A DNA stretch of 64,000 nt from Clostridiaceae bacterium (GCA_016280595.1 JAEEHB010000034.1:1073-65072); one strand, 5' to 3'; counted from the first letter of the stretch, positions 8,867 to 61,147 are shown. The notes: generated by a model not told the origin, from the letters alone. Translations and numbers: made by a program.

Positions 8867-9100
8867 CCGGTCGTAGCAATAAGCGCGAAAAGCGAAAAGA
8901 AAAAAGTTTTAATGAACTGCGGGTTTATAACTCGCAGTTCTTTTTATTGTTTTGCGGTAATTGACTATAAGGAAAAGATTATATTTTTCTTTTCTCAACG
9001 CCTTTATTCGCTCGCCGTACCTTAGTACTGTCTTCGCTCATAAATGCGTTGTTTTCATCGCTTCTTGCGTCCTCCCTGTTGCTGTGCCTTTGAGTAAGTA
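8867..9100 (+). repeat. Structured dispersed repeat, copy A (includes terminator hairpin 8914-8940)
   Basis: Head CGGTCGTAGCAATAAGCGCGAAAAGCGAAA, hairpin + U-run, second hairpin with GCCGTACCTTAGTACTGTCTTC, tail CCTCCCT...GTGCC; similar to copies B-E. Confidence 0.8.
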
Positions 9101-9139
9101 ACATCTGGAACAATTGTGTTTTTAACAAGTACTTGCCAC

Positions 9140-9239
9140 GTAGGGGCGGATATCATCCGCCCGTCACAAGGATATGCGTGAGCATCGTAGGGCACGGATA
9201 CATCCGTGCCGATGGCGGGATGTGGTCATCCCGCCATAC
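9140..9239. repeat. Cluster of GTAG-type REP palindromes
   Basis: GTAG-GGGCGGATATCATCCGCCC (9140-9162), GTAG-GGCACGGATACATCCGTGCC (9187-9210), inverted GGCGGGATG..CATCCCGCC-ATAC (9214-9239). Confidence 0.8.
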
Positions 9240-9254
9240 ATAAATTTAATGTTG

Positions 9255-9508
9255 CCTTTTCAGTGGCTCTCAGGGAGGGAACAGAAAAGGATGAAAACGG
9301 CGATTATTTCGGCCGACGACAGTATCAGGATACGGCAAGGCCGAAAGAACGCCGAGAAAAGACAATATAAACATTTATTCCTTATATCAAATCAGATGGC
9401 ATAAAGAAAAGAAGTTCGAGTTAAAAACCCGAACTTCTTTATTATTTGTCTTTTCGTTTTTCGTCGTATATTCGCCGACCGGGTTTTTCGCCTTTTATTT
9501 CCCGACCG
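9255..9508 (-). repeat. Structured dispersed repeat, copy B (inverted relative to A; head motif present twice in tandem)
   Basis: The minus strand reads CGGTCGGGAAATAAAAGGCGAAAAAC then CGGTCGGCGAATATACGACGAAAAACGAAA, then terminator 9408-9440 and second hairpin 9299-9353. Confidence 0.8.
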
Positions 9509-9905
9509 TTTTAGTTTCGGCTTCTTTCAGCGAGAAATTCCTGCCCTCGTGCTGAATCAGGCGGACGATTTTGCCGGTACCGTCTTTCTCAAGCCCGAAC
9601 ACATAGTTATATGTTGCGCCGTTGGGGGTGAGCCTTATGGTGCTGTCGTCGATTTCATATGTGCCTTCAATCACATTTCCTTTGTAGTTTTCGCTGTATG
9701 TGCCTTCGCCGAAGAAGTAGGTGTTGGTATTGTCGCTTTCTTCTTCAAAAACAAGGCCTGCGAGTGAATCTCCGCTGTTGCTGCCGCTTTCGGTTTCGGA
9801 TTGGGACGCGTCTTCCTTCGTGTCGGTTTTGCCGCAGGACGCGAGAGCGAAAACGAGTGAAAGAGTCAGAAGCAGGGCGGCTATTGTGATGATAATCTTT
9901 TTCAT
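9495..9905 (-). CDS. Lipoprotein of unknown function
   Basis: Signal peptide with lipobox LASC; Ser/Glu-rich linker; small beta-rich domain. Confidence 0.75.
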   Translation of the reverse strand: MKKIIITIAALLLTLSLVFALASCGKTDTKEDASQSETESGSNSGDSLAGLVFEEESDNTNTYFFGEGTYSENYKGNVIEGTYEIDDSTIRLTPNGATYNYVFGLEKDGTGKIVRLIQHEGRNFSLKEAETKTVGK

Positions 9906-9940
9906 AATTCTTCTCCTTTATCATCATGATTTACAGTCAT

Positions 9941-10014
9941 ATTATACACTTATGCTTATAAAAGTCAAACATAATAATCTTTGTGTTGACTGAATAATGC
10001 GGGATGAGTATAAT
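9941..10014. promoter_or_regulatory. Divergent sigma-A promoters
   Basis: Plus: TTGACT(9986)-17-TATAAT(10009); minus: TTGACT-16-TATAAT (9968-9941). Confidence 0.65.
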
Positions 10015-11110: not shown

Positions 11111-11112
11111 CC

Positions 11113-12417: not shown

Positions 12418-12418
12418 T

Positions 12419-46304: not shown

Positions 46305-48050
46305 ATGTCAGTATTGGTTAAACAGGCAATAACACAAATAAGAACAGCAATTATGGATGCTGCCGGCAGAGCCGTTGCCGACGGCGAGTTTGAGCCCTGC
46401 CCGCTCAGCGATTTCATTATCGAAGTGCCCGCAAACAGGGCAAACGGTGATTATTCCTCAAACGCCGCAATGGCGTGGGCGAGGGATCTTCACAAGGCTC
46501 CGCGCGCCATCGCGCAGATTCTTGCGGACAGAATGATGCTTGAAGATACCTTTGTCAGCAGGTTTGAAATCGCGGGCCCCGGCTTTATGAATTTCTATCT
46601 TGACGATACATTCGGAGCCTGCATAATCGAGGATATCCTCGAAAAGAAGGAAGATTACGGCAAATCCACATACGGCGGCGGCAGAAAAATCAATGTTGAG
46701 TTTGTTTCCGCCAACCCCACGGGTCCCATGCATATGGGTAACGCAAGGGGAGGTGCTCTGGGCGACTGCCTTGCGAGTGTGCTCGAATGCGCGGGCTACG
46801 AAGTAAGCCGTGAGTTTTATGTGAATGACGCGGGCAATCAGATTGACAAATTCGGTCTCTCGCTCGATATCAGATATCAGCAGCTTTTCCTCGGCGAAAA
46901 CGCCCCCGAACTGCCCGAAGACAGTTATCACGGCGATGATATAATCGAAAGAGCGAAAGAGTTTGCCGGTATTTACGGCGACAAATATATGAGTGTGTCC
47001 GAGCAGGAGCGCAGACAGGCTCTTATCGATTTCGCCCTGCCGAAAAACATTGAAAACATGAAGGTGAATATGAAGAAATACCGTATCAATTACGATACTT
47101 GGTTCCTCGAAAGCACCCTTCATAACGACGGCGAATTAAACGAAATTATCAATATTCTCAAGGAAAAAGGTCTCACTTACGAAAAAGACGGAGCGCTCTG
47201 GTATAAAAACAGCGAAGTGCTCGCCGAAAGGCTCCGCAGAGAGGGCAAGTCCGATGCCGATATTGAAAAACTTGAACTCAAAGACGAAGTGCTCATAAGG
47301 CAAAACGGTAATCCCACCTACTTTGCCGCCGATATAGCCTATCACCGTAACAAACTCGCGGTAAGGGGCTTTGACAGAGCGATAGATGTTTGGGGCGCCG
47401 ACCATCACGGCCATATTGCCAGGATGAAGGGCGCGCTTGACGCCGTAGGTCTTGACGGAGACCGTCTTGATGTGCTGCTTATGCAGCTTGTAAATCTTAT
47501 CAAGGACGGCAAGCCCGTCAAGATGAGCAAGAGAAGCGGCAAGGCAATCACCCTGACCGACCTGCTTGACGAAATTCCCATAGATGCCGTCAGGTTTTTC
47601 TTCAACACCAGAGAGCCCGGCTCACCGATAGATTTTGACCTTGACCTCGCAATTTCGCAAAACAGCGAAAACCCGGTTTATTACTGCCAGTATGCGCACG
47701 CAAGAATATGCTCCATCCTCGCGAAACTCGCCGAGAATAACATTCAGCCGAGAAAATGCACGCTGAAAGAACTTATGCTTCTCAAAGAGGATGAGGAGAA
47801 GGAACTTATCCGCCACCTCGCTTCATATACCGATGAAATCATCTCGGCGGCAAAGTATTACGACCCTGCAAAGATTACGCGCTATGCGGTTGAACTTGCA
47901 ACTCTCTTCCACAAGTTCTATAACGCGCACAGGGTAAACTGCGATGACGAGAGTCTTATGCAGGCGAGGGTGAGTCTGTGTCTGAGTGTTAAGACGGTAC
48001 TGGCGAATATCCTCAATATGTTCAGTATCACGGTCCCCGACAAAATGTAA
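46305..48050 (+). CDS. argS: Arginine--tRNA ligase
   Basis: EFVSANPTGPMHMGN, WGADHHG, KMSKR, YCQYAHAR. Confidence 0.98.
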   Translation: MSVLVKQAITQIRTAIMDAAGRAVADGEFEPCPLSDFIIEVPANRANGDYSSNAAMAWARDLHKAPRAIAQILADRMMLEDTFVSRFEIAGPGFMNFYLDDTFGACIIEDILEKKEDYGKSTYGGGRKINVEFVSANPTGPMHMGNARGGALGDCLASVLECAGYEVSREFYVNDAGNQIDKFGLSLDIRYQQLFLGENAPELPEDSYHGDDIIERAKEFAGIYGDKYMSVSEQERRQALIDFALPKNIENMKVNMKKYRINYDTWFLESTLHNDGELNEIINILKEKGLTYEKDGALWYKNSEVLAERLRREGKSDADIEKLELKDEVLIRQNGNPTYFAADIAYHRNKLAVRGFDRAIDVWGADHHGHIARMKGALDAVGLDGDRLDVLLMQLVNLIKDGKPVKMSKRSGKAITLTDLLDEIPIDAVRFFFNTREPGSPIDFDLDLAISQNSENPVYYCQYAHARICSILAKLAENNIQPRKCTLKELMLLKEDEEKELIRHLASYTDEIISAAKYYDPAKITRYAVELATLFHKFYNAHRVNCDDESLMQARVSLCLSVKTVLANILNMFSITVPDKM

Positions 48051-48057
48051 TCTTCTT

Positions 48058-48285
48058 CGGTCGGCGAATATACGGCAAAAAACAAACAGACAAGTTATAT
48101 AGAAGTGCGGATTTTTAACTCGCACTTCTGTTTTTTATTCGTACTGATTTTCATAGGGAATAATTGTTTTGTCTGTTTTCGGCGTCTTTTCGCCTTTGCC
48201 GTATCTTGATACTGTCTTCAGTCGAAAATACGCCGTTTTTGCTCGTCTCTTCTCCTCCCTAAGTGCCACTCAGGTAGCAAGATTA
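48058..48285 (+). repeat. Structured dispersed repeat, copy C (terminator hairpin 48101-48129)
   Basis: CGGTCGGCGAATATACGGCAAAAAACAAAC head; second hairpin 48181-48234 with GCCGTATCTTGATACTGTCTTC; CTCCTCCCTAAGTGCC tail. Confidence 0.85.
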
Positions 48286-48305
48286 ATAATTGCTTTTTAC
48301 AAATG

Positions 48306-48540
48306 CGCACCCCGTAGGGGTGCGGGTGTCCGGTGGACACCTTCGCGTAACGAAAGCACCGACCGAACCGACAGGTGAGACCGGATATCATCCGCCCGCA
48401 ATACAGGATATGCGGAGCATCATCATCGTCGCTTGCGCCCCTTCATTGCGAATTTCGCATTGCGCATTGCGAATTAACCAATCGTCCCTTAATTCTGCAT
48501 TAATAAAAAGGACTGCAATTGTAATATTGCAGTCCGTTTT
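48306..48540. repeat. REP-like palindromes, heptamer tandem repeats and the opposing gene's terminator
   Basis: CGCACCCCGTAGGGGTGCG, GGTGTCCGGTGGACACC, CGGATATCATCCGCCC...AGGATATGCGGAGCAT; CATTGCG-type 7-mers at 48444-48475; GGACTGCAAT...ATTGCAGTCC. Confidence 0.7.
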
Positions 48541-48621
48541 GCGTTTTATGCTGTTGTTTGGCTGAAAAATGCGCCGATTTGCTTAAAAAACGCCGTTCAC
48601 GGCGTTTTTCGGCGCGGGAGG

Positions 48622-49551
48622 TCAAATTATACTCATAACGAAATCGTATGCCTTATTGAAGCAGTCTCTGCCCTTTTTCACTATTGTTGCGATGGTCCAG
48701 GCGTGCAGTGATATGATGCCCGTGCCCTCAAATGTTTCGTATCTGATGCCGGCGTCCTCATACTGCTTCGCGAGGTCGTATGCCTCAAAGCGCAGGTAAT
48801 CCTTTGCCGCGCTTACGATGAATGCGGGCGGAAAATCCTTTGTCACGCGGGGGTAGGAGAGCGCTCCTTCGGGCGTTTCGAGGTAGGCTTTTGCTTCGTC
48901 CGGGTCCATTCCGAGAAATGAGCAGACCATAAGATTTATATCAAAAAACTTTGACTGCGGTTTGCTTTCGTCAATCAGGTTTTTGAGGTCAAAACAGCCG
49001 CAGTGGCTCACGAGCGCCTTCACATCGAAGGCGTCACTGTGCCTGAAATTTATGCCGAGCGTGTCAAACAGGCTCTTGTCTTTAGCGAGCGCGGCGCATT
49101 CGAGTATGTAGTATCCGCCGGCGCTTTCGCCCGCGAGCACGATTCTGTCCGTGTCGAAATTGTATTCGTCCGCCTTGTCAAAGAGCAGGTCAATGGCGGT
49201 AAAGATTTCTTTTAACTGTGCGGGAAAAACTTTTCCGGGCGCGTAGGTGTAGGAAATCGAGGCGGTGAAAAAGCCTTTTTCAGCCCAGTTTGCCACATAG
49301 GTGTCGCGCATTTCGGTAATTCCCGATATCCAGCCGCCGCCGTGAATGTAGATAAACAGCGGCTTTTTCTCGGCTTTTAGGTCTTTCCTTGTGCAGAGAT
49401 TTATATACTGCTTCTTCTCGCTTCCGTAGGCGATTTTGCTGTATTCGCAGGTTTTGGGGGTGGGTCTGTGAAGCGCAAGGTAGGCAAGGCCTTCCGTGAA
49501 ATTATACCAGCAGGTGGCGATTTTCGCGTGCGTGTAAAGTCCTTTGTTCAT
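48622..49551 (-). CDS. Alpha/beta hydrolase (HSL-like esterase)
   Basis: HGGGW, GESAGG, C-terminal Asp and His. Confidence 0.9.
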   Translation of the reverse strand: MNKGLYTHAKIATCWYNFTEGLAYLALHRPTPKTCEYSKIAYGSEKKQYINLCTRKDLKAEKKPLFIYIHGGGWISGITEMRDTYVANWAEKGFFTASISYTYAPGKVFPAQLKEIFTAIDLLFDKADEYNFDTDRIVLAGESAGGYYILECAALAKDKSLFDTLGINFRHSDAFDVKALVSHCGCFDLKNLIDESKPQSKFFDINLMVCSFLGMDPDEAKAYLETPEGALSYPRVTKDFPPAFIVSAAKDYLRFEAYDLAKQYEDAGIRYETFEGTGIISLHAWTIATIVKKGRDCFNKAYDFVMSII

Positions 49552-49554
49552 TTT

Positions 49555-50019
49555 TCACCTTTCCACTCTGCAAGTCAGAGTAACAATGCCGCTGTCGATA
49601 ATGTCAACCATTCCGTAATATCCTTCGGCTATCGAGCCGGGATTCATTATGTAGAGCCCGTCTTCATAGCCGCTTGTCTGTTTGTGCGTGTGGCCGTAAA
49701 GCACGGCGTCCGCCTTGAGCGACTGCGCTTTTGATATGAGATAAGCCTCGCCGTATTTCACCTTTTCAAGGTAACCGTGAGTGCACAGAATTCTTTTGCC
49801 GCCGATTATCAGCATTTCGTTTTCGGGCAGGGACGATAAAAAATCGCAGTTGCCTTTTACCGCCGTAACCGGTCTGCCGTTTATTTCGTAAGTGAGAAAG
49901 TCAAGGTCTCTCTCGCCGTCGCCGAGGTAGATTATGCGGTCAGCCTCTTTATGCATAAGAAGGGCCTGCCTGAAATAATAAGGCGTGCCGTGTGAATCCG
50001 AAAAAACAAGAAGTCTCAT
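49555..50019 (-). CDS. YfcE/YsnB-family metallophosphoesterase
   Basis: SDSHG, GD, GNCD, THG, GHTH, NPGS. Confidence 0.92.
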   Translation of the reverse strand: MRLLVFSDSHGTPYYFRQALLMHKEADRIIYLGDGERDLDFLTYEINGRPVTAVKGNCDFLSSLPENEMLIIGGKRILCTHGYLEKVKYGEAYLISKAQSLKADAVLYGHTHKQTSGYEDGLYIMNPGSIAEGYYGMVDIIDSGIVTLTCRVER

Positions 50020-51626
50020 TATTCCGCCGTTTCCGTTTCCGCCGCCGTTTTTCTGCGGGTGAGCATTTCGTTGAGGTATGCGGCAATATCCTCATCCTCG
50101 CCCTTTTTGATTATGAAATGTTTCTGTGAGTATTTATCTTTCTTTGCGGTGAATTCTCCGCTCATATCAACGCTTACGCTCATCGGTTTTGAAAGCGCGT
50201 AGTATTCTCCGCCGCCTTCAAACGCATACTGCACAGCCGTCAGGTCGAAACTCGGGTTGAGGTACGGCGCCTGACTGCCGCAGTGCAGACGGTAGCAGTC
50301 GCACACGGGATTTCCTTCACACTCTTCCTCAAAGCCCGTCTTTATGCTCTTGCCTACATCGTAAGGCGAAAAGACCATGAGATTTCTGTATTTTTCGAGC
50401 ACCGCAGCCGCCGAAACGGGGTCGGTTTCGATGTTGAATTCTTTGCCCGAAGGATATTTGCCTGCCATTGCAACAATGGAGTGAACCTTTTTGTTAAAGA
50501 GATTCGCGTCTTTTCTCAGTGCGGCGGCTATGTTTGTGAAAGTGCCGAGCGTGATAATGGTTACTCCGCCGTCGGGGGCATTCGCGAGCAGGTCAAGGCA
50601 GAGGTCAGCGGCATCCTGCGAAGCGCAGGCGCTGCTCTCGTATTTACAGTATTTTTTTGTGATTTCTTTGCTGTATTTTGAATTATCCGGAAGCACTGCC
50701 GCGCCCTTGTGAGAGCCCACGGGAATTTCGTCATAACCGTAGTATTCGCTTATCGCCCTGATGGTCGCGTTGCCGTAAATGTTTGAGGTGCAGTTGAGTA
50801 TTCCGAGCAGTCTGATGCCGTATTTTTCAAGCATTTCAAACATTATCGCCATAGCGCCCGCGTCGTCGCAGTCGGGGCCTATGTCGGTGTCAAGTATAAC
50901 CGCTCTCTTCTCTTCGCAAAGGGGAGTGTAGGCGGGTTTGCCGAATTCCTCCTCGGAGTTTACTGTCTTCACGGTGTATCTGATAATCCAGAAGATGAGC
51001 GCCGCCACCACGATTGCCGCACCGACCGCCACAACATATTTCATTGGCACAAGGTCATACACCTTGTCGCCGAGAATCGTGAAAAGAATTACTCTGGGCA
51101 GTATACCTGCGAGCGACATGCCGAGGTAGGGGAGATACCTTACTCTCATTGCGCCGAAAAACAGCGAGCAGAAGTCAATCGGAAGCCCGGCTATACGCAT
51201 TATGAATATGCTCGATTTTTCGTGTTTTTCGTAAATATCCAGTATTTTTTTGCCGCTCTTGATGCTCTTGATTTTCTTTACTACAAAGGGCCCGCCGAGA
51301 ATAAGACCGAGCAGATAGGTTACGCTGACCTCGATTATGATGCCGACTGTATTGACCGTGAGGGCGAGCCAGAGTTTCAGCGACATACCGACCGCTATGT
51401 AAACCAGCGAGGCGGGCACCACGAGCACCGCGCCTTTTACGGCATATACGCCGAGCACAACCGCCACGGCCTTGGGTATTGAGCCCGCATTTTCAATGAG
51501 GGCGCGCACGTCGATATTCTGCAAATCCTTGAATTTGACCAGAATCACCGTTATAACCGCCACGGCGATGATTATTCTTATTGCCAGGCCGAATGAATGC
51601 CTGAATCGCATAAATTTCTCTTTCAC
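50019..51626 (-). CDS. Fusion: VTT/DedA (TVP38) membrane domain + nucleoside hydrolase (IUNH-like) domain
   Basis: N-terminal TM helices with the FIMRIAGLP..SLFFG pattern; C-terminal DTDIGPDCDDAGA, TLGTFTN, MAG, EFNI, SFD. Confidence 0.8.
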   Translation of the reverse strand: MKEKFMRFRHSFGLAIRIIIAVAVITVILVKFKDLQNIDVRALIENAGSIPKAVAVVLGVYAVKGAVLVVPASLVYIAVGMSLKLWLALTVNTVGIIIEVSVTYLLGLILGGPFVVKKIKSIKSGKKILDIYEKHEKSSIFIMRIAGLPIDFCSLFFGAMRVRYLPYLGMSLAGILPRVILFTILGDKVYDLVPMKYVVAVGAAIVVAALIFWIIRYTVKTVNSEEEFGKPAYTPLCEEKRAVILDTDIGPDCDDAGAMAIMFEMLEKYGIRLLGILNCTSNIYGNATIRAISEYYGYDEIPVGSHKGAAVLPDNSKYSKEITKKYCKYESSACASQDAADLCLDLLANAPDGGVTIITLGTFTNIAAALRKDANLFNKKVHSIVAMAGKYPSGKEFNIETDPVSAAAVLEKYRNLMVFSPYDVGKSIKTGFEEECEGNPVCDCYRLHCGSQAPYLNPSFDLTAVQYAFEGGGEYYALSKPMSVSVDMSGEFTAKKDKYSQKHFIIKKGEDEDIAAYLNEMLTRRKTAAETETAE

Positions 51627-51820
51627 TTTTATTCTCCTTGACTTTTTCCGGGAAGAAAAAGGTTATTTGTTTCTATTATTACAATTATACTCCCGCGCCG
51701 TGATTTTATCAAGAAAAAAAGCATCTCTTCAGGGCAAAAAATGGAGGTTGATTTTATATTATTTTGTGATATAATACATAATCAAGTAAGTATGGATTTC
51801 AAAAGAAAGAGAAAACCGTT

Positions 51821-53239
51821 ATGATTACTGCAAAGGAAAAGTATCAGCGCGCGCTGGGCAGTCTGACTTTTGACAGAATGTACGGCTACGTTAAGAAAAA
51901 TCCTTCCGAAAATATAATAAAACTTATCAACCTCGGCGAGAAGTTTCTGGGCAATACTTTCCCGAAGAAGAATTTTGAGGCTTTCCGCAATGCCGTGAGC
52001 GACCCTGGCAGCGTCTGGTACGGCTATGCCGAAAGAATCATCAACGAGTGTGACGGCGGTTACATCAAAAAACTTCTTATGGCTCTCGGGCTCGGGGCAG
52101 GTGTTGCAGGCACAAAAGCGGTGCGCGCCAACAGAGAAAAATACAAGTGCAATATTCCGTTCATTATGCTTCTCGATCCCACCAGCGCCTGCAATATGAA
52201 CTGCAAGGGCTGCTGGAGCGCGGAATACGGCCACAAATCAAATCTCTCGCTCGATGAAATGCGCAGCATAGTTGACCAGGGTACGAAAATCGGCACTCAT
52301 GTATATATGTTTACGGGCGGCGAGCCCCTCATCAGAAAGAACGATATTCTCACCCTCTGCCGCGAAAACCCCAACTGCGCTTTCCTCGCTTACACCAACT
52401 CCACTCTCATAGATGAGAAACTCTGTGAAGAGGTTAAAGAAGTAGGCAACCTCACCTTCGCCGTGAGTATTGAGGGCACACCCGAAAGCAACGACGAGCG
52501 AAGAGGACAGGGCGCCTATGAGCACGCAATCAGGGCTATGGACCTGCTCAGGGAGCACGGCATCTTTTTCGGCATTTCCGTTTGCTACACGAGCAAAAAT
52601 GTCAGCGAAGTGACGAGCGACGAATTTCTCGATTATATGATAGAAAAGGGCGTAAGATTCGCCTTCTATTTCAACTATATGCCCGTAGGCCATATGGGCG
52701 ACGCGGACCTGATTCCGCGCCCGGACCAAAGAGCGCATATGTACACCTGGCTCAGAAAAGTCAGGGATTCAAAAACGGGCAAGCCCCTGTTTTTCCTCGA
52801 TTTCCAGAATGACGCGGAATATGTGGGCGGCTGCATAGCAGGCGGCAGAAACTATTTCCACATCAACTCCGAAGGCGATATGGAGCCCTGCGTTTTCGTT
52901 CATTATTCGGACTCCAACATAAGAAACAAAACCATACTCGAAGGTCTCCACAGCCCGCTGTTTATGGCTTACTATCATAACCAGCCGTTCAACGACAATC
53001 ACCTCAGGCCCTGCCCGATGCTCGAAAATCCGGACTGCCTGCGTAAGATTATCGCCGACACCGGAGCGCAGTCTACAGACCTTATCCAGAAGGAAGATGT
53101 AAACACCCTCTGCTCCAAGTGCGATAAATTTGCCGCGGAATGGAAGCCCATAGCTGACAATCTCTGGCAGACTATGACTCACCCGGACCCCAAAACGCAG
53201 TTTTACCGCGACACGGACGAGGCAAAAGCCGGAAAATAA
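51821..53239 (+). CDS. Radical SAM protein with a SPASM/twitch-like C-terminal domain
   Basis: CNMNCKGC, GGEP, GCIAGG...EPCVF, RPCPM. Confidence 0.9.
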   Translation: MITAKEKYQRALGSLTFDRMYGYVKKNPSENIIKLINLGEKFLGNTFPKKNFEAFRNAVSDPGSVWYGYAERIINECDGGYIKKLLMALGLGAGVAGTKAVRANREKYKCNIPFIMLLDPTSACNMNCKGCWSAEYGHKSNLSLDEMRSIVDQGTKIGTHVYMFTGGEPLIRKNDILTLCRENPNCAFLAYTNSTLIDEKLCEEVKEVGNLTFAVSIEGTPESNDERRGQGAYEHAIRAMDLLREHGIFFGISVCYTSKNVSEVTSDEFLDYMIEKGVRFAFYFNYMPVGHMGDADLIPRPDQRAHMYTWLRKVRDSKTGKPLFFLDFQNDAEYVGGCIAGGRNYFHINSEGDMEPCVFVHYSDSNIRNKTILEGLHSPLFMAYYHNQPFNDNHLRPCPMLENPDCLRKIIADTGAQSTDLIQKEDVNTLCSKCDKFAAEWKPIADNLWQTMTHPDPKTQFYRDTDEAKAGK

Positions 53240-53245
53240 AACTCA

Positions 53246-53372
53246 ATACTTAAGGGGTGCTGATTATTCGGCTGAGATTATACCCATGAACCTGATCCCG
53301 GTAATTCGGGCGTAGGAACAGAGTATCACTGATTATCAAAGCACCCGGAAAACAGCCGGGTGCTTTTATTTT
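53246..53372 (+). promoter_or_regulatory. TPP riboswitch with intrinsic-terminator expression platform
   Basis: GGGGTGC...GCTGAGA..ATACCC..GAACCTGATC.GGTAAT..GGCGTAGGAA core; terminator AGCACCCGG..CCGGGTGCTTTT; upstream of thiT. Confidence 0.93.
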
Positions 53373-53398
53373 TACATATTACAAACGGAGGAATTAAT

Positions 53399-54088
53399 AT
53401 GAAAAACGAATCTAAAACTTTCGTGCTTGCCGAGTCGGCAATCATGCTCGCGCTCTCCGCGACGCTTTACACCGTAAGTGAATTCATCCCCTGGCCCACA
53501 TGGATTCAGGGCGGAGGAGTCACGCTTTTCGCCAGCGTGCCGCTGATAGTGCTCTCTTACAGAAGAGGCTTTAAGGCAGCCCTGCCCGCCTCTTTCCTGC
53601 TCGGCCTGTTTGAACTGTTTATGGGGCTTAAAAACTTCGCCTGGGTAAAGGGCCCCGTTTCCTATGCCGTGGTTGCCCTTTTTGACTACATCCTCGCTTT
53701 CGGTGTTTTAGGCTTAGGAGGACTTTTCAGAAACAGGAAGGGAAGCACCGTCGCAAAACTGACGGCCGGAGCGGTCGTGACAAACGCGCTCAGATTTGTC
53801 TGCCACTTCATCAGCGGAATAACCGTATGGAGCGAATATACGCAGGGTAACGGCGGATTTACCAACCTTGATTCGCTTGTTCACGGCATTACAAAAGGCT
53901 CGGTCATTTATTCCGTAACCTATAACGGCGGCTATATGCTGCCCGAAACGGTTATCGCCGTAATCGGCTGCGCGGCGATTGCTCTCGTTCTGCCGAAAAA
54001 AGCGGTAGCAAGATATTCACAGGGTGTTACCGCCTCAGCAGAGAAATCACAGGAAACTGCACAAAGCGAAAACAATAATGCCGAATAA
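53399..54088 (+). CDS. thiT: Energy-coupled thiamine transporter S component ThiT
   Basis: QGGGVT, LFDYILAF, RFVCHFISG, YSVTYNGGY; downstream of the TPP riboswitch; ATG 53399 after GGAGG. Confidence 0.9.
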   Translation: MKNESKTFVLAESAIMLALSATLYTVSEFIPWPTWIQGGGVTLFASVPLIVLSYRRGFKAALPASFLLGLFELFMGLKNFAWVKGPVSYAVVALFDYILAFGVLGLGGLFRNRKGSTVAKLTAGAVVTNALRFVCHFISGITVWSEYTQGNGGFTNLDSLVHGITKGSVIYSVTYNGGYMLPETVIAVIGCAAIALVLPKKAVARYSQGVTASAEKSQETAQSENNNAE

Positions 54089-54157
54089 AAATATTGAAAA
54101 CAAAATGCGGATATGGTAGAATAATCGGGAAGTCAATCATTTGGGAGGGCAGTATCA

Positions 54158-54655
54158 ATGCCTAAGAGAAAAGATTATATTTCCTGGGACGAATATTTTA
54201 TGGGTATCGCGATGCTTTCGTCTTACCGCAGCAAAGACCCCAACACCCGTGTCGGCGCCTGCATCGTGAATGACAAAAACCGCATTATGTCAATGGGCTA
54301 CAACGGTTTCCCCATGGGCTGCAGCGACGACGAGTTTCCCTGGGACAGAGCGGGTGAAGAATACAATACAAAGTATCCCTATGTCTGCCACGCGGAGCTT
54401 AACGCAATTCTCAACGCGCGCGGCACAAACCTCGAAGGCTGCAAGATTTATGTTGCGCTTTTCCCCTGCAACGAATGCGCCAAAGCGGTTATTCAGTGCG
54501 GCATAAAAGAGGTCATCTATCTTTCCGATAAATATGACGGCACGCCCGGCAACAGAGCGTCGAAGAGAATGTTTGACGCGGCGGGGGTGAAGTACAAGAA
54601 AATCGAAATTGACCGCAAAGGAATTATGATCGATTTCACAGTAGAAAACATCTGA
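54158..54655 (+). CDS. dCMP deaminase family protein
   Basis: WDEYFM, RSKDP, GYNG, HAELNA, PCNEC. Confidence 0.93.
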   Translation: MPKRKDYISWDEYFMGIAMLSSYRSKDPNTRVGACIVNDKNRIMSMGYNGFPMGCSDDEFPWDRAGEEYNTKYPYVCHAELNAILNARGTNLEGCKIYVALFPCNECAKAVIQCGIKEVIYLSDKYDGTPGNRASKRMFDAAGVKYKKIEIDRKGIMIDFTVENI

Positions 54656-54890
54656 CCGGTCGTAGAATAAACGGCGAAAAACGAACAAAAAAAAGAAGAA
54701 GAGGACTGCAAGTTTTTGATTTGCGGTCCTCGTTTTTTATTCAATCAAATTTACATAAGGAATAGTTTATATTTTTTGTTCTCGACTCTTTCCGTCCTTT
54801 GCCGTATCTTGATACTGTCTTCATTCGCAAATGCTCCGTTTTCGCTCGTCTCTTCTCCTCCCTAAGTGCCATTGAGGAAGCAAGATAAAT
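54656..54890 (+). repeat. Structured dispersed repeat, copy D (terminator hairpin 54701-54731)
   Basis: CCGGTCGTAGAATAAACGGCGAAAAACGAAC head directly after TGA; CCTTTGCCGTATCTTGATACTGTCTTCA and GCTCGTCTCTTCTCCTCCCTAAGTGCCA identical to copy C. Confidence 0.85.
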
Positions 54891-54916
54891 ACTTGTTTTT
54901 GATAAATGGGCATTCC

Positions 54917-55114
54917 GTAGGGGCGGATATCATCCGCCCGCCAAACAGGATATGCGTGAGCATTGGCCCTCTACAATTATGGAGAGGGTGCCCCGAAGGG
55001 GCGGGTGTGGTTAATGCGGAGCATTACAATCGGAGCAGCGCTCCCCTCAATTCTGCGTTCTGCATTCTTAATTCTGCATTAATAAAAGGCTGTAAGCGTT
55101 ATGCTTACAGCCTT
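54917..55114. repeat. GTAG-REP, heptamer tandem repeats and the opposing gene's terminator
   Basis: GTAG-GGGCGGATATCATCCGCCC identical to 9140-9162; AGGATATGCGTGAGCAT; AATTCTG/CATTCTG-type 7-mers at 55049-55080; AAGGCTGTAAGC..GCTTACAGCCTT. Confidence 0.75.
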
Positions 55115-55132
55115 GAAACTTTGTTGTAATTA

Positions 55133-55984
55133 TCAGAACGGATTGTGGCCTGTGGCGAGGCGGACTATGAAGCCGATGAATTTGCCTGCGGCTTCGCCGT
55201 ATTCCTCAACATAGTAGTCATACTCAATGCCTTCTGCAATCAGGACAGGCTCCGTGTTTTCGCCGAGTCCGAGTTCCTTCAGTTTCTGAAGGACGAGGCG
55301 GGCTATCACTATGTTGCCTTCGGCATTGGGGTGCACCGAATCGCGGGCGATATATTCTCTGTGCCCGTTCATCGCAGTTGCCACATCAACTATTTCATAC
55401 GCGCCGGGATGTTCTTCGAGGTAGCCGTATATCATATCGTTCACGGTGTTTGTGCCGTGCTTGTATGCGCCGCCGAGCAGCCCGTACCACGAGCAGAGCA
55501 CCGTCTGCGCAAGGATTACGGCATCGGGGTTGAGTGCTTTGATTTCGTCAATGATTTTTGCGAAATTCTCAATCATATTTGCGGTGAGCTGCTTGTATCT
55601 CGGCGTTTCGATGCCTGCCACAAGGCCTACCGCTATGCCTACAACGCCCTCGTCGGTGAAATAATCGTTGCCGCCGATTGAGAGGCTGATTATCTCCGCG
55701 TCTTTTATGAGGGAGCGTGCGTATTCGTTTTCGGTCACCTGAATGAGCAGGCCCTCGGTTGTCCTCGCGGATCGGCCGATGTTGTAATAGTTGTATCCGT
55801 TAGTGTTTGCGACTATCGCTCCGTATGACGCCTCTTCGGGGTTTTTCACTCCGAAGCCCTGGGCAATCGAGTCACCCATAAGCAGGTAGTCTGTTTCCGC
55901 CTGCTGTGCCGCCGCCGTTGCCGCAAGAGTAAAGAGCAGGGCAAAGGTAAGCAGAAGCGATATCGTTCTTTTGATTGTTTTCAT
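55133..55984 (-). CDS. Secreted SGNH/GDSL hydrolase
   Basis: Signal peptide; MGDSI, SIGGND, DSVHPN; paralog of 2429..3241. Confidence 0.85.
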   Translation of the reverse strand: MKTIKRTISLLLTFALLFTLAATAAAQQAETDYLLMGDSIAQGFGVKNPEEASYGAIVANTNGYNYYNIGRSARTTEGLLIQVTENEYARSLIKDAEIISLSIGGNDYFTDEGVVGIAVGLVAGIETPRYKQLTANMIENFAKIIDEIKALNPDAVILAQTVLCSWYGLLGGAYKHGTNTVNDMIYGYLEEHPGAYEIVDVATAMNGHREYIARDSVHPNAEGNIVIARLVLQKLKELGLGENTEPVLIAEGIEYDYYVEEYGEAAGKFIGFIVRLATGHNPF

Positions 55985-56012
55985 TTATTTACCCCTCCCG
56001 GTATCCCCGTAA

Positions 56013-56882
56013 TCAGAATTTACCGCCGCCGCCACCGTGGCTTATGCCGCCTCCGGAAACGTGGATGCTCGTGCCGCCGAAGTGACCTCCCGAGCTTCCC
56101 GAGCCGCCGGAATCTTTATGCGTATCTTTGGGCTTGGGCATTGCGGAAACATTAGAGTAAAGGAATATATCATCCTGATTTGCAATATTGAGCGAATCGG
56201 AAACAGCATACTCTCTCGCGTTGCTCTTGATGCCTACGCTCTTGAGTTTGCTCTTCATGGGTGAAGTGCCGAGCGCGCCCGAGATAACGCCGAGAATAGC
56301 GCTGATTACAGATGAGCGCCCTGCGGGGAAACTCTTTTCGACCTCCGGAATCGGGAGTTCGTTTTCGTCGCCTTCACCCTCAATCCAGATATCATAGATA
56401 TCGCCGTTTGCGCCCGACTCAATCAGTTCACTTGATTCGTAAGCGAACGCGGCAAAAGCCTTGTAGTAATCGCCGCCGCTCAGGTAGGGGAGCATAGTTT
56501 CTTCTATTCTCTCGATGCCCGCGTCGGTTATGTATTCAAGGCATACGCCGCAGGTGGATATCCAGTAATCCCTGTCAGCCATTGAAATTGCGAGCGCTAC
56601 GGCATCGCTGCCGTATTCGCCGTTGTCAATATAATCATCGGCAAAAGTCATCATATCGTAGTAGCCGTAGTCCTGCATATCGTCAACGGTTACCACGATT
56701 ATATTCACGCCGCATTTTTCGCTGAGTTCTTCAAGGTAGGAGGCAAGCTGAGTCTTTTCGTCGCCCGAGAGAAGATTTGCGCCGTCACTGAGTTTGTCGG
56801 AATAGGCGGCCGCGCTTATCGCAAGTGAAACAACGAATACAGCCGCAAAGACAAGGGCGAGAATTCTGCATACTTTCTTCAT
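56013..56882 (-). CDS. TPM-domain membrane protein (YdjH-like)
   Basis: Signal peptide, D.ANLLS..E, TPM pattern, TM helix, Gly/Ser tail ending HGGGGGKF. Confidence 0.85.
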   Translation of the reverse strand: MKKVCRILALVFAAVFVVSLAISAAAYSDKLSDGANLLSGDEKTQLASYLEELSEKCGVNIIVVTVDDMQDYGYYDMMTFADDYIDNGEYGSDAVALAISMADRDYWISTCGVCLEYITDAGIERIEETMLPYLSGGDYYKAFAAFAYESSELIESGANGDIYDIWIEGEGDENELPIPEVEKSFPAGRSSVISAILGVISGALGTSPMKSKLKSVGIKSNAREYAVSDSLNIANQDDIFLYSNVSAMPKPKDTHKDSGGSGSSGGHFGGTSIHVSGGGISHGGGGGKF

Positions 56883-56895
56883 ATCACACGCCCCC

Positions 56896-57975
56896 TTATC
56901 TCAGAAACAGGAACTGAATCAGAAATGAAGCGGCCGCAACACCTGCGGCGATTGCCGCGAAGTATTTGCCGTATTTCGCCTTGTCCATAGGCAAGTCGCC
57001 GACGAATTTGCCGGTCTGACCGTTCATGGCGAAGGTGTATTTCTGATTGTTCCAGGTGGTGTTGAGGAGCCATACGGGGCAAAGGGTATATTTTGCCCTG
57101 CTGTTTGAAAGATTGATTGTGCTGCTCTCAACTTCCACCGAGGCGTAGTTGCTTACTGTGGATTTGAAGGCTTCTTCGGTGCTCGCCTTTATTCTTTCGT
57201 TAGCTCTCACCGCCGATTCTTCGGCATCCACATCATATTTATCTGCAAGGAAGCCCGCAAGGTAAGCCGTCTGAAAATCAACCGCTTTGCTGAAATCATA
57301 AGGCTCTATGGACTCCATCAGCGTATCGTCGATATTTTTTGAGCCGTCAACGGGCACATTCGTGAAAGAGAGCGTGCCGCTGCGGTTGATGCCGTAATGG
57401 GAAGTTTCGGTGTAGATATTGAGAGCGTCTTCCCACACCCTCGTTTTGGTGGCTTTGTATTTTATGTCCGCCTCGGCATCGGCATCGAAAAGCCAGAAGG
57501 GAACATATATGCCCTTGATTTCGTCAATGTGATTCTGATCTTTGAATACGGAGGGAACAAGTTTTTTGCCCTCAAGGTGATGCATAAGGCCCGCCTTTGC
57601 GGCTTCTTTGTCAAGCTGGAAAGGAATAACATAATCGGGCTTGAGCATACCGCTGAACTGATCCATCATCACTACGGGGTTTCCGCAGTAGGGGCAGGAG
57701 GTGGCGGCTGTGTTTTCGTCGCCTATTATTTCTCCTCCGCAGCTTTTGCATACATAAGAGCGCAGATTGCTCGCTTCGCCCTCATCCCATTCGGAGCCCG
57801 CAGGCACATCCCACTGCATATTATCCTGCGGTTTGTCGAGCGTGAGGTCAAAGGCCGCCAGAGCCTCCATCTCAAACTCGGTGTCGCAGTAGGGGCATTT
57901 CATTTTCTGAATGCCGCTGTCAAACGCGAGCGCGCCGCCGCAGTTAGGGCACTTGTATTCTTGAATTTCTGCCAT
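56896..57975 (-). CDS. Zinc-ribbon membrane protein (YdjG-like)
   Basis: CPNC, CPYC, CKSC, CPYC; YVPFW; NGQTGK; C-terminal TM; start MAEIQ at 57975. Confidence 0.85.
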   Translation of the reverse strand: MAEIQEYKCPNCGGALAFDSGIQKMKCPYCDTEFEMEALAAFDLTLDKPQDNMQWDVPAGSEWDEGEASNLRSYVCKSCGGEIIGDENTAATSCPYCGNPVVMMDQFSGMLKPDYVIPFQLDKEAAKAGLMHHLEGKKLVPSVFKDQNHIDEIKGIYVPFWLFDADAEADIKYKATKTRVWEDALNIYTETSHYGINRSGTLSFTNVPVDGSKNIDDTLMESIEPYDFSKAVDFQTAYLAGFLADKYDVDAEESAVRANERIKASTEEAFKSTVSNYASVEVESSTINLSNSRAKYTLCPVWLLNTTWNNQKYTFAMNGQTGKFVGDLPMDKAKYGKYFAAIAAGVAAASFLIQFLFLR

Positions 57976-58043
57976 CGGAAAATCTCCTTGATAAAACATT
58001 CTGCCGTACAGGCGCACCTGTACGGCAGTTATTTGCCTGCTGA

Positions 58044-59360
58044 TTACTGAGCGTCGTTTTCGTCAAAAGCGTCTCCGCACTCGGGGCAGAATTTGGGAGG
58101 ATTGTGGGGATCTTCGGGAGTCCAGCCGCATTTGTCGCACTTGTAAACGGGTGCGCCGGCAGGTCTCTTTGCTCCGCAGTTAGCGCAGAATTTGCCTTTG
58201 TTCACAGCGCCGCAGGAGCATTTCCAGCCTTCGTCGTCGGGCTTCTTTGCGCCGCATTCGGGGCAGAAGTTGCCTGTGGCTGTTGCGCCGCAGGAGCATT
58301 TCCAGCCGGCTGCCGCGGGTGCTGCGGGTGCCGCGGGATTTGCGTTCTGCTGCTGACCCATAGCGTAAAGGTTGGCGGCGTTCATCGCTCCGCCTGCATT
58401 CATAGCCATACCCATGCCTACAAAGCCGTTCATTGCGCCGGATTCGTTGGATGCCGCTGCTCTCATTGCGTCGGCTGTTGCGCCGGTGATTGCCGCTGCG
58501 CCCATGGTGGGATCCTTGTAAACGGCAGTTGCCTGAATCTGCTTGATGCGTTCCTGATCCTCTTCGGGAAGAGTGACGGAGCCGAGAGCCACGGAAACAA
58601 CTTCAAGGCCCCTGATTTCGCCCCACTTCTGCGAAAGAACCTGGTTCATCGCATTTTCGAGGTCGGTGGTGTGGGTTACTATCTGGTTGGGACGGATTTC
58701 AAGATCGCTGAGCTGACCGAAAGCGGGCTGAAGAGCGCTGACGAATTCGGTTTTGAGCTGAGTGTCAAGTTCGTCTCTCTTGTATTCTGTGGTTACGTTG
58801 CCGCAGACATTGGTGTAGAAAAGAAGGGGATCGGCGATTCTGTAGGAATAAACGCCGCTGCATCTTATGGATACATCGATGTCAAGGCCGATTTTGGAAT
58901 CAACAACTCTGAAGGGGATGGGATTCGCGGTGCCGAATTTATTATCAACGAGTTCCTTGGTGTTGAAGTAATAAACTCTCTGGTCTTTGCCGGTGTCACC
59001 GCCGTAGGTGAATCTTCTGCCGACTATTTTGAAAGTCTCTTTGATTGATTCCTTGAGATTGCCGGTGAAGATTGAGGGCTCGGTGGATGTGTTATAGATG
59101 AATTCGCCGGGCTCTGCGCAGACCTCAACGATCTTGCCCTGCTCAACGATAATCATGCACTGGCCGTCTGCAACGGCGATGCCGGAGCCGTTTGAAATAA
59201 TGTTGTCATTGCCTTTGGTGTTGGAGGAACGGGAGGTAATCTGCTTGGTGCCTCTCGTCATAAGTACATCTTTGGGCATAGCCTCGCAATAGAAAAATTC
59301 CTTCCACTGATCGGCAAGTGTTCCGCCTAATGCGCCGGCGGCTGCTCTTATAAGGCCCAT
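58044..59360 (-). CDS. SPFH-domain protein with C-terminal zinc ribbons (YdjI-like)
   Basis: DQWKEFF, ISNGS.IAV, KFGT; WKCSCG..FCPECG repeats. Confidence 0.85.
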   Translation of the reverse strand: MGLIRAAAGALGGTLADQWKEFFYCEAMPKDVLMTRGTKQITSRSSNTKGNDNIISNGSGIAVADGQCMIIVEQGKIVEVCAEPGEFIYNTSTEPSIFTGNLKESIKETFKIVGRRFTYGGDTGKDQRVYYFNTKELVDNKFGTANPIPFRVVDSKIGLDIDVSIRCSGVYSYRIADPLLFYTNVCGNVTTEYKRDELDTQLKTEFVSALQPAFGQLSDLEIRPNQIVTHTTDLENAMNQVLSQKWGEIRGLEVVSVALGSVTLPEEDQERIKQIQATAVYKDPTMGAAAITGATADAMRAAASNESGAMNGFVGMGMAMNAGGAMNAANLYAMGQQQNANPAAPAAPAAAGWKCSCGATATGNFCPECGAKKPDDEGWKCSCGAVNKGKFCANCGAKRPAGAPVYKCDKCGWTPEDPHNPPKFCPECGDAFDENDAQ

Positions 59361-59392
59361 AGGTAAAGTCTCCTTTCAAATTTTATAAAAAA

Positions 59393-59533
59393 ATTATATC
59401 AATTAGGCGAAAAAAAGTCAACAATTCCGCCCTTTTGCCCGCTTGTATGTTTGCACAATAATAATTGTATTTATAGTTGAAAACACACAAAAACGTACTT
59501 TTATATTGAAAATATATAGTGCTTATGTTAAAA
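59393..59533. promoter_or_regulatory. Divergent sigma-A promoters
   Basis: Minus: TTGACT-17-TATAAT (59421-59393); plus: TTGAAA-17-TAAAAT (about 59506-59534). Confidence 0.6.
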
Positions 59534-59573
59534 TTACACGGATAATACAGGTTGCGAAAGGGGAGAAAAGCCT

Positions 59574-61082
59574 ATGACTTCCGAAGCGGTTCGCGAAGAA
59601 AACACAAACGAAACCGCCGGTCTTCAGGCGGCGCATAAAGACAGACGGTATGTAGGCACCAAAGAAACCGCGGCTTATATTCTTTACGACATAGCGCAGT
59701 CCTTCAATATCAACAAATACAGTGATATTTTTATCACCGATATTGTCAAGATAGGGCTCAGATTCCAGAGTATTGTCAGTTTTGTGGTCGGTCTGTGGGA
59801 TATGGTCAACGACATTTTCCTTGCCGCCATTGTTGACAAAACAAGGACAAGATGGGGCAAATTCAAGCCCTGGCTTATCATTTACGCAATCCCCGGCCTC
59901 GTGCTCTATACCCTTTACTGGACCATGCCCGTCACAATCGGCGGTATGGGCAAATACGATATCGGCAAACTGATATTCTTTCTGCTTTTCAGTCTGATTC
60001 AGAATCTCGCCGATTCCACCAAGGGTATCGCAAGGACCGGTATGCTCGCAACGATTACCCCCAATATCATTGACAGAACCAGGCTTATCACCGAAGCAAA
60101 CCTGCTCTCCGGTTTCGTTGAAAAGGGTCCCGAAATCATAATGGGCGTGCTGATTGACCTCGTAAACCACGGCAAACTCAAAATCAAGATGCCTTCGCTC
60201 TACATTTCCGCAGGCGTTTTCTGCAGCATTGTGAGCGGCGCTTTCGCGATTGCGTTTGCCTTCATAGCAAAAGAGAGAGTCAATCAGACTGTTGACAAAC
60301 CGAGTATCAAGGCGAGTTTCAAATCAATACTCACAAACAAGCCGCTGCTGCTCATAACCCTTTCCGAATTCCTCGGCGCTTTCAGCATCGGCTCCGGCGT
60401 AAACTATTACTACATCAACGTTCTCGGCCTTGCCACGATGTCCACCATAGTCGGCATCCCGGGCGCGATAGTTTCCCCGATTTCCTATTCTTATGTTCCC
60501 TGGGCAAGAAAGAAATTCTCCACCAAGACCCTCTGGGTTTTCGGCTCGCATATCAACGACTTCCTCATGGTCGGTGTTTTCCTGATAGGTTCAATCAACA
60601 AGAACTACAAGAAACTCGGCGCCATGATACCGGCATTTATGCTGCGTGAAACAATCTGGATGTTCTTCTGGGGCATAAGGTCTGTTATTCCCGAAGAGAT
60701 GCGAAACGAATCCATCGACTACGGCGAATGGAAAAACGGCTACAGAAACGAAGGCCTTACGGGCGTAGCAAAAGAACTGCCCAGAAAACTTATCAACACC
60801 TTCGGCAATACCATCAAAGCCGCAATTCTCCACAAGGTAGGCTATGTGGAAGGCGCGGGCTTCGGCGGTCAGTCCGAAAAGACCGAGTATTCACTCTTCT
60901 GGATGTGCACCATTCTTCCCGTTATCACAAGCATACTTTCCATCGTGCCCAAACTCTTCTATGACCTGAGCGGTGGAAAGAAGGAAAGAATGTATGCGGA
61001 ACTTTATGAGAGACGCGCGGCGATAGCGAATGAAGTTAACCAGATGAAAGACGAACTCGACGCGGATGCGGTCGGCGAATAA
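59574..61082 (+). CDS. MFS transporter, GPH/MFS_2 family
   Basis: WDMVND...IVDKTRTRWGKFKPW, DYGEWKNGYRNEG; about 12 TM helices. Confidence 0.92.
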   Translation: MTSEAVREENTNETAGLQAAHKDRRYVGTKETAAYILYDIAQSFNINKYSDIFITDIVKIGLRFQSIVSFVVGLWDMVNDIFLAAIVDKTRTRWGKFKPWLIIYAIPGLVLYTLYWTMPVTIGGMGKYDIGKLIFFLLFSLIQNLADSTKGIARTGMLATITPNIIDRTRLITEANLLSGFVEKGPEIIMGVLIDLVNHGKLKIKMPSLYISAGVFCSIVSGAFAIAFAFIAKERVNQTVDKPSIKASFKSILTNKPLLLITLSEFLGAFSIGSGVNYYYINVLGLATMSTIVGIPGAIVSPISYSYVPWARKKFSTKTLWVFGSHINDFLMVGVFLIGSINKNYKKLGAMIPAFMLRETIWMFFWGIRSVIPEEMRNESIDYGEWKNGYRNEGLTGVAKELPRKLINTFGNTIKAAILHKVGYVEGAGFGGQSEKTEYSLFWMCTILPVITSILSIVPKLFYDLSGGKKERMYAELYERRAAIANEVNQMKDELDADAVGE

Positions 61083-61147
61083 ACGGCGAAAAACAAACAA
61101 AAAAGTAAAAGAGGACTGCAAGTTTTGAACTTGCGGTCCTCTTTTTA
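61069..61147 (+). repeat. Structured dispersed repeat, copy E (head and terminator only)
   Basis: CGGTCGGCGAATAAACGGCGAAAAACAAAC overlapping the MFS stop; GAGGACTGCAAG..TTGCGGTCCTC hairpin nearly identical to copy D. Confidence 0.8.

Follow-up and report, generated by a model that had tools for sequence, protein, structure and literature searches.

A stop-codon-docked repeat family with a built-in terminator in an animal-gut Clostridiaceae genome: a probable new relative of BOX and Correia elements

The DNA analyzed here is a window of 64,000 nucleotides (nt) from a Clostridiaceae bacterium (GCA_016280595.1, JAEEHB010000034.1:1073-65072; contig C43:1073-65072 of the source assembly), an animal-gut member of an uncultured Clostridia genus for which we used one draft metagenome-assembled genome (MAG; 1.83 Mb, 65 contigs, 78% complete) with crude gene calls. 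Five copies (A to E) of a structured repeat lie in this window at the ends of the genes for a McsB-type guanido kinase (mcsB), a putative lipoprotein, the arginyl-tRNA synthetase ArgRS (argS), a dCMP/cytidine deaminase, and an MFS_2 transporter. Sequence reading, repeat detection, and profile search all placed the five copies where a first-pass annotation, made from the sequence alone, had located them. The flanking genes also proved to be those it had named, apart from the lipoprotein, which stands only in part: the N-terminus resembles a lipoprotein signal peptide by eye, but the open reading frame (ORF) of 136 amino acids (aa) has no Pfam match. We propose, with a probability of roughly 0.7, that the family is a non-autonomous, modular, miniature mobile repeat with a built-in terminator, comparable to BOX, Correia, and SPRITE elements and carried by a subset of the species of its genus; it appears to be a new mobile repeat related to BOX and Correia elements, not a new RNA gene.

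Copies were located through an iterated profile search of the whole genome, with matches kept at E ≤ 0.001. This search returned 110 matches, many of the weak ones being the terminator hairpin on the opposite strand, and it supplied the genome-wide copy number that was wanting from the window: 31 full-length and approximately 40 partial copies. The 72 matches that score 40 bits or more fall into 55 loci after merging, with a total of 13.3 kb, or 0.7% of the assembly. Sixteen of these 72 are found no more than 400 nt from a contig end; the repeat thus breaks the assembly, and the real copy number is higher; public contigs from four animal-gut runs terminate exactly at element borders. The non-coding unit is 225–255 nt long, with a core of ~225 nt and a 3′ extension of ~30 nt that is conserved behind copies A–D, and no conserved reading frame was found on either strand of the full-length copies. 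From its 5′ end, it consists of a head, a first hairpin (HP1) with a U-tract, the linker ATAAGGAA, a second hairpin (HP2), and a tail that folds back to pair with the head. Mosaic, nested, and tandem copies all occur: different copies combine heads, terminators, and HP2 variants in different ways, and on contigs C10, C25, C48, and C64 copies are followed by additional HP2 modules.

A consensus fold was derived from an alignment of the 31 full-length copies. Its outermost helix, P1, joins the head (columns 2–24) to the tail (columns 194–221) and is formed by imperfect inverted repeats of ~20–25 nt, the columns being 92–99% paired, with compensatory variants. Inside it, a second long-range helix, P2 (columns 27–35 with 127–135), encloses HP1 (columns 49–77), the U-tract, and the linker, while HP2 (columns 137–193) comprises three stacked helices with the invariant tip GCCGUAY-N4-RUACUGUC. 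The statement that the element has no terminal inverted repeats thus had to be given up. Double-sided changes occur in 26 of the 55 pairs of this alignment, whose rows are paralogues of one genome, so that the counts reflect four or five variant lineages and not 31 independent events. The proportion of paired cells is 97.0%, versus 45.2–50.0% with the partners slid by 1–3 columns, which agrees with the first impression that the stems remain intact despite the divergence of the copies. The covariation score of 0.363, compared with at most 0.080 in controls, was reached by none of 500 shuffles, and P1 and P2, the long-range stems, also covary. The covariation of P1 and P2, together with the shuffling of modules among copies, shows that pairing is maintained and not merely inherited. 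On the gene-sense strand, the paired columns hold 100 G-U cells versus 15 A-C cells, mostly in HP1 and at one invariant G-U of the HP2 tip, and the alignment folds with an energy of −45.4 kcal/mol on that (+) strand versus −29.8 kcal/mol on the reverse.

The placement of the copies is as distinctive as their fold. A copy was counted as docked when its head starts between −14 and +14 nt of the stop codon of a co-oriented crude gene, and this holds for 47 of the 56 head-bearing copies, versus 4.9% of random intergenic positions and 1.2% of random positions; the docking first seen in the window is therefore non-random genome-wide. Copies that are not docked are mostly second members of tandems or lie behind an extra partial head. 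Heads start 0–13 nt past the stop, most commonly after a 2-nt spacer, whereas in six of the 56 copies (copy E among them) the gene stops at the head's own TAA (positions 12–14), and the last three or four residues of the protein are then encoded by the element. The nearest upstream gene, which differs from copy to copy, is co-oriented in 53 of the 56, as had been claimed for the window, and in two of the three exceptions co-oriented ORFs of 189 and 130 codons end at −1 and +14. The further claim that the junctions are always convergent applies to the five window copies but not to the genome: of the 44 assessable copies, whose upstream gene is co-oriented and whose contig also includes a downstream gene, 28 lie at convergent junctions and 16 at co-directional ones. 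Convergent junctions are enriched for the element, given that ~24% of all gene 3′ ends face a convergent neighbor. By eye, the TAA/TGA-like triplet that follows the CCTCCC box of the P1 3′ arm shows no correspondence with the type of stop codon on the left. Docking recurs in carriers within the genus that have subfamilies of their own (G009, G137, and G081, less clearly G042), where heads start 0–9 nt past the stop at most of the loci examined.

Every head-bearing copy places a terminator-like hairpin and a U-rich stretch behind the upstream gene and in its sense. HP1 has the form of an intrinsic (Rho-independent) terminator, with a GC-rich stem, a short loop, and an adjoining U-tract. Over the 56 head-bearing copies, its folding energy averages −19.0 kcal/mol, and a mean of 5.9 of the next 10 bases are T (at least six in 30 of the 56). 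In relatives, native terminators begin 5–30 nt past the stop, and none is left between stop and head here. Since the element is consistently oriented with the upstream gene, HP1 is the first terminator-like signal that RNA polymerase meets after that gene; as judged from the sequence, the element most likely ends the transcripts of its upstream genes at HP1.

Within the genus, the HP2 core was detected in 16 of 121 genomes, compared with a single hit for a reversed control pattern. The present genome contains 47 occurrences, and other carriers contain 26, 21, 18, 16, 9, and 6, down to a minimum of one. The core was absent from the nine searched genomes of other genera in the same family, and among 400 evenly sampled genomes of the class, six, from three other families, carried it in multiple copies. 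The ends of mcsB, argS, and the deaminase gene were then compared with those in G137, the closest relative (90–95% amino-acid identity), and in G009, G018, G081, and G042, with argS followed through 30 genomes of the genus. Behind mcsB, a full copy (A) in this genome corresponds to a plain terminator in G137, a full copy of another subtype in G018, and no copy in G009, G081, or G042. Behind argS, a full copy (C) corresponds to a plain terminator in G137, a mini version in G018, and no forward copy in G009, G081, or G042, the last having a relative in reverse orientation that goes with the other side of the junction. The junction between argS and the alpha/beta-hydrolase gene on its far side measures ~75 nt in G137 versus 571 nt here. 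Behind the deaminase gene, G137 has a full copy of a different subtype from copy D, and G018, G009, G081, and G042 have none. Occupancy of orthologous loci, which the first-pass annotation had singled out as informative, thus differs among close relatives, and these gene-end differences are, on present sequences, the product of gain, loss, or replacement on a short time scale. The mini form behind argS in G018 (L012) consists of the head, a hairpin, and a TTTCAT tail without HP2, and the full form behind mcsB in the same genome (L262) has GTGC..GCAC in place of GTAC..GTAC as its tip stem, so that a tip that is invariant elsewhere carries a compensatory change here.

Patchiness, ortholog differences, mosaicism, assembly breaks, and terminators together support the earlier interpretation, namely a mobile element that is non-autonomous and brings a terminator to the ends of genes; mobility itself we infer from gain and loss. 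The element shares with miniature inverted-repeat transposable elements a length below ~300 bp, a lack of coding capacity, many copies, terminal inverted repeats, and site polymorphism among relatives, but no target-site duplication was found. We envisage that the element may be mobilized in trans by some further function and inserted at the stop-proximal or terminator region, after which the spacer would be lost or trimmed and the head's TAA could rescue genes whose native stop is gone. HP1 would then end the transcript of the upstream gene, and any read-through RNA would fold into the closed P1/P2/HP2 structure at its 3′ end, which could block exonucleases or shield the convergent neighbor. 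For the docking itself, we prefer insertion aimed at the stop-proximal or terminator region, by analogy with a sister Clostridia family and a Massilia repeat described below. Alternatively, spacer that has become useless may be trimmed in this 92%-coding genome, with the head's TAA rescuing overshoots, or the terminating ribosome may need to touch P1.

Several results weigh against this proposal. Target-site duplications were not found: across the 31 full-length copies, the longest word shared by the two flanks averaged 6.3 nt versus 6.7 nt for mismatched controls (the right flanks are usually other repeats, which could hide an old duplication), and complementarity between flanks gave nothing above control. 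Searches with five transposase families, namely DDE_Tnp_1, Y1_Tnp, rve, DDE_Tnp_4, and the IS110 type (PF01609, PF01797, PF00665, PF13359, and PF01548), returned no hit in this 78% complete assembly; insertion sequences often fail to assemble. The only RVT_1 hit of the genome is a UG26 defence-class reverse transcriptase (402 aa, E 1.9e-171 to the PADLOC model) that lies 8 kb from the nearest copy with no visible link to the element. The UG26 gene itself, at L230:2783-4717 (G000 contig C5, ~54782-56716), is preceded by the gene for its associated COG2852-type protein of 182 aa. Among the contigs of four DNA runs that cover 46500-62500 of the window, none bridges an empty site; they stop at element borders, and read depth is higher across the copies. 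P1, P2, and the rest of HP2 show only weak wobble asymmetry. Efficient termination at HP1 would make RNA with P1, P2, and HP2 rare, in which case read-through RNA, single-stranded DNA, or recognition of the inverted repeats would have to account for the conservation of these stems. Finally, no known transposition chemistry explains docking this tight.

A multicopy structured RNA with a function of its own is less likely as the primary nature of the folded part because the distribution is patchy. In its most developed form, this explanation posits a host-selected, cis-acting module of the 3′ untranslated region (an mRNA stabilizer, an exonuclease barrier, or a switch sensed by the terminating ribosome) that would have spread through its usefulness, with mobility secondary, and whose tight spacing to the stop is there because that ribosome has to make contact with the outer P1 helix. 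It would account for strong covariation over the whole fold, P1 and P2 included, for the excess of G-U over A-C on the gene-sense strand, for the strict orientation (53/56), and for the conservation of the core motif across phyla; the 0–13 nt spacing would also put the first paired bases near the edge of the terminating ribosome's footprint, as inferred from textbook sizes. We nevertheless consider it unlikely. The core is lacking in 105 of the 121 genomes of the genus, and the ends of mcsB and argS are free of the element in the closest relative. Because most of the fold lies downstream of the terminator, P1, P2, and HP2 cannot form in terminated transcripts, and there is no fixed geometry, with the ribosome entering the head in six copies and halting up to 13 nt before it elsewhere. 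Nor does any Rfam family match: at the gathering threshold, the whole window gave only a thiamine pyrophosphate (TPP) riboswitch, a permissive search with copies A/B and C gave a best E of 0.069 (far below gathering), and ten foreign loci gave nothing relevant.

Less probable still is that the element serves as a single-stranded DNA substrate of recombination or transposition, its P1-joined ends being recognized by a strand-specific enzyme in the manner of attC sites or IS200/IS605 elements. Such a substrate would explain both the fixed orientation and the absence of a target duplication. The strand-asymmetric pairing would fit as well, as G-T wobbles are tolerated in DNA too, and an element that abuts the end of an ORF in one orientation is reminiscent of attC. 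In a sister Clostridia family, moreover, a duplicated whole terminator hairpin flanks the element and points to structure-directed insertion. On the other hand, the genome has no hit to a Y1 (HUH) transposase, the copies stand behind housekeeping genes at mostly convergent junctions and not in co-oriented cassette arrays, and no attC-type core sites were noticed by eye, no formal search for them having been made. The last candidate, a small gene on the opposite strand in which AGGGAGG, ~10 nt, and ATGAAAAC would supply the ribosome-binding site and start codon of an open frame and the hairpin would be a bidirectional terminator, is highly improbable and was rejected because frames are unconserved across the 31 full copies: the CCTCCC box, read in reverse, hardly varies among the copies of this genome, the ribosome-binding site and ATGAAAAC are kept in 22 of the 31, and the B-type peptide (MKTAIISADDS..RKNAEKRQ) resembles by eye the reverse-frame peptide of another MAG's relative, but only seven of the 31 copies encode a peptide of 25 residues or more, 15 reach a stop codon after 6 or 16 residues, in differing frames, nine lack the motif, related families in G051 and G050 have tails without the purine box, CCTCCC is accounted for as the P1 3′ arm that pairs with the head, and the wobble pairs favor the other strand.

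Several known repeat families resemble the mobile repeat that we propose. BOX elements of Streptococcus pneumoniae and its relatives are modular boxA-boxB-boxC repeats (Croucher et al., 2011; PMC3049150). Like the Clostridia family, they are non-coding, modular, and variable in length, with a repeatable central module and ends that pair together; both families occur downstream of genes in clusters with other repeats. Next to the BOXA1R primer site, with which they were retrieved, BOX copies read GCCTTGCCGTA, 6–7 nt, TACTGACTTCG, compared with GCCTT(T)GCCGTAY, 4 nt, RTACTGTCTTC in the Clostridia family; the BOX ends read CGAAAATC ... GATTTTCAT, compared with GCGAAAAAC ... GTTTTCAT in its closing helix. 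The likeness is confined to this core of ~30 nt and the closing CGAAAA/TTTTCAT motif: the boxA, boxB, and boxC module sequences are not matched, and the Clostridia-family profile finds BOX loci only at E ~0.1 over 31 nt. BOX is also reported to make target duplications (PMC3049150), none of which were found in the Clostridia family. BOX lacks a terminator hairpin, and its host class differs.

A similar motif occurs in the genus of a Neisseria MAG, where CCGTAC-N5-GTACTGTC was found in 10 of 13 genomes with up to 248 copies (control pattern, at most one per genome). The elements concerned, of ~106 and 155 nt, we take to be Correia repeats (CREE/nemis) on the basis of reviews (PMC10969869 and PMC3049150); their copies read ..CGCCTTGCCGTACTATTTGTACTGTCTGCGGCTTCG... 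Correia and the Clostridia family are both abundant, hairpin-forming, non-coding repeats that share the central CCGTAC..GTACTGTC motif. The differences are that the terminal repeats of the fetched Correia-type copies end in TATA and are unrelated to the Clostridia-family ends, that Correia has no built-in terminator module, and that its tip loop measures 5 nt compared with 4 nt. Correia is described with terminal repeats of 26 bp (PMC3049150) and often lies upstream of genes, acting as a promoter (PMC10969869); a review also records effects at the RNA level, RNase III cleavage among them. SPRITE, likened to the present family by its description, functions alike, and its authors suggest co-option as a terminator; it is a single 18-bp duplex plus a U-rich tract of ~105 nt and lacks a second hairpin or long-range closing stems. 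Repetitive extragenic palindromes (REP/BIME) with their RAYT transposase were rejected as an identity, there being no Y1_Tnp hit and the unit being ~225 nt long and AT-rich outside its stems versus GC-rich palindromes of 20–40 nt.

The same hairpin tip recurs in a repeat of the Oxalobacteraceae (with Massilia, Undibacterium, and Janthinobacterium in the record titles among the matches listed), for which we know of no published name. In the Massilia haematophila genome (G047, L191–L217), GCCGTAC-N4-GTACTGTC has 29 exact occurrences, versus none for the control. This repeat is a simple long hairpin of ~125–140 nt with clear 20-bp terminal repeats GAGCGCCTAACAAAACCTCC and without a terminator module. 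It often abuts a stop and carries a TAA or near-TAA triplet on both flanks, as a 3-bp duplication would leave; in GC-rich genomes, such flanks would by themselves explain why it lands on TAA stops. Nearer to home, two further Clostridia MAGs contain elements of the same architecture as the present family, also close behind stops. A sister Clostridia family (L218, L229, L223, L244, and L249; G150, G290, and G237) begins with CAGACYGTCGAAAAAGTCGG, has the same HP2 tip, and sits directly after the gene's intrinsic terminator hairpin. In this sister family, the whole hairpin of 18–28 bp, different at each locus, is directly repeated at the far end of the element, which in sequence looks like a structure-sized target duplication.

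The Clostridia-family profile reaches the related families only over 28–40 nt, at E values of 0.0003–0.2 in a small target set, and some of the profile-tested foreign loci had been picked by the motif itself. The core pattern is loose, with ~140 chance hits expected in 596 Gb, and only multi-copy genomes were counted. For BOX, Correia-type, and Oxalobacteraceae repeats, we claim a shared motif and not family membership. Neither a description of this Clostridia family nor any mention of a motif common to BOX and Correia was found in the literature searched, which included passages of PMC3049150, PMC3184786, and PMC10969869, with subscription papers mostly outside the search. The tip GCCGUAY-N4-6-RUACUG(U/A)C spans families with unrelated ends, namely BOX, Correia-type, Oxalobacteraceae, and at least two Clostridia families. 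A tentative and rather doubtful extension of our proposal is that a single conserved factor may dock at the tip, be it a host protein that binds RNA or DNA or a mobilization function acting in trans. This would define a superfamily across phyla and make stop docking part of the insertion mechanism instead of an after-effect of selection. Integration would then be directed by structure or context at the stop or terminator, as the duplication of a whole terminator hairpin by the sister family suggests. To our knowledge, the mobilizing enzymes of BOX and Correia have never been identified; a common tip-binding factor, if real, would join three long-known orphan repeat families.

For the host, approximately 3% of the genes in this genome are predicted to end their transcripts on a selfish-looking repeat and not on a private terminator, which would make a mobile element part of routine gene architecture, with a stop-codon precision that exceeds what known insertion chemistry explains. 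For annotators, the family breaks metagenome assemblies and creates element-encoded C-terminal tails and spurious small ORFs. The coordinates of the window copies and of other features are collected in Table 1.

Table 1. Repeat copies, their modules, and other features of the window (whole-window positions)
Feature	Position	Strand	Remarks
Copy A, full length	8868..9110	+	Profile match 8868-9098; 3 nt past mcsB-like stop TGA 8862-8864
Copy A, P1 5′ arm	8869-8891	+	
Copy A, P2 5′ arm	8894-8902	+	
Copy A, HP1 (terminator hairpin)	8914-8940	+	
Copy A, U-tract	8941-8951	+	
Copy A, linker	8967-8975	+	ATAAGGAA
Copy A, P2 3′ arm	8986-8994	+	
Copy A, HP2	8996-9051	+	Core 9014-9031
Copy A, P1 3′ arm	9052-9076	+	With CCTCCC
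Copy A, 3′ extension	9083-9110	+	
Other repeat families	9139-9240		Directly behind element
Copy B, full length	9243..9481	-	Profile match 9258-9481
Copy B, 3′ extension	9243-9270	-	
Copy B, P1 3′ arm	9273-9297	-	
Copy B, HP2	9298-9354	-	Core 9319-9336
Copy B, HP1	9411-9437	-	
Copy B, P1 5′ arm	9458-9480	-	
Extra partial head upstream of copy B	9482..9508	-	Model positions ~1-26; its own TAA 9495-9497 (TTA on + strand) is the stop of the 136-aa putative lipoprotein gene
Copy C, full length	48058..48289	+	Profile match 48058-48277; 7 nt past argS stop TAA 48048-48050
Copy C, P1 5′ arm	48059-48081	+	
Copy C, P2 5′ arm	48084-48092	+	
Copy C, HP1	48102-48128	+	
Copy C, U-tract	48129-48139	+	
Copy C, P2 3′ arm	48170-48178	+	
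Copy C, HP2	48180-48235	+	Core 48198-48215
Copy C, P1 3′ arm	48236-48259	+	
Copy C, 3′ extension	48262-48289	+	
Other repeat families	48306-48420		Directly behind element
AT-rich motifs	48440-48500		Short, tandem-like
TPP riboswitch	53243-53336	+	61.4 bits (gathering 54.3); upstream of ORF 53360-54088
Copy D, full length	54657..54892	+	Profile match 54657-54880; 1 nt past deaminase stop TGA 54653-54655
Copy D, HP1	54703-54729	+	
Copy D, HP2	54783-54838	+	Core 54801-54818
Other repeat families	54908-55030		Directly behind element
AT-rich motifs	55040-55085		Short, tandem-like
Tandem copies	58154-58307		Two 76-nt copies, 78 nt apart, 76% identical
Copy E, head and terminator only	61069..61146	+	MFS_2 transporter gene ends at the head's own TAA 61080-61082; protein tail ..AVGE element-encoded
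Copy E, HP1	61111-61141	+	
Copy E, U-tract	61142-61146	+	

The partial head upstream of copy B encodes the C-terminal residues ..VGK of the putative lipoprotein. Copy D is a hybrid that pairs poorly because the two arms of its HP2 outer stem derive from two different variants. A promoter scan of the copy C junction gave a single weak match that was not above shuffles.

Other repeats share these junctions. Directly behind copies of the element lie GC-rich hairpin units, for example CGTAGGGGCGGATATCATCCGCCCG and then AGGATATGCG(T)GAGCAT, along with a longer unit with GGGGTGCGGGTGTCCGGTGGACACC..CACCGACCGAACCGAC; other genomes of the genus contain related units. The AT-rich motifs, of the ATTGCGAATT / AATTCTGCATT type, separate the hairpin units from the convergent gene's terminator, and similar ones are found directly behind argS in relatives. 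Elsewhere in the window, the pair of tandem copies is covered by ORFs on both strands and may be an internal repeat of a coding sequence.

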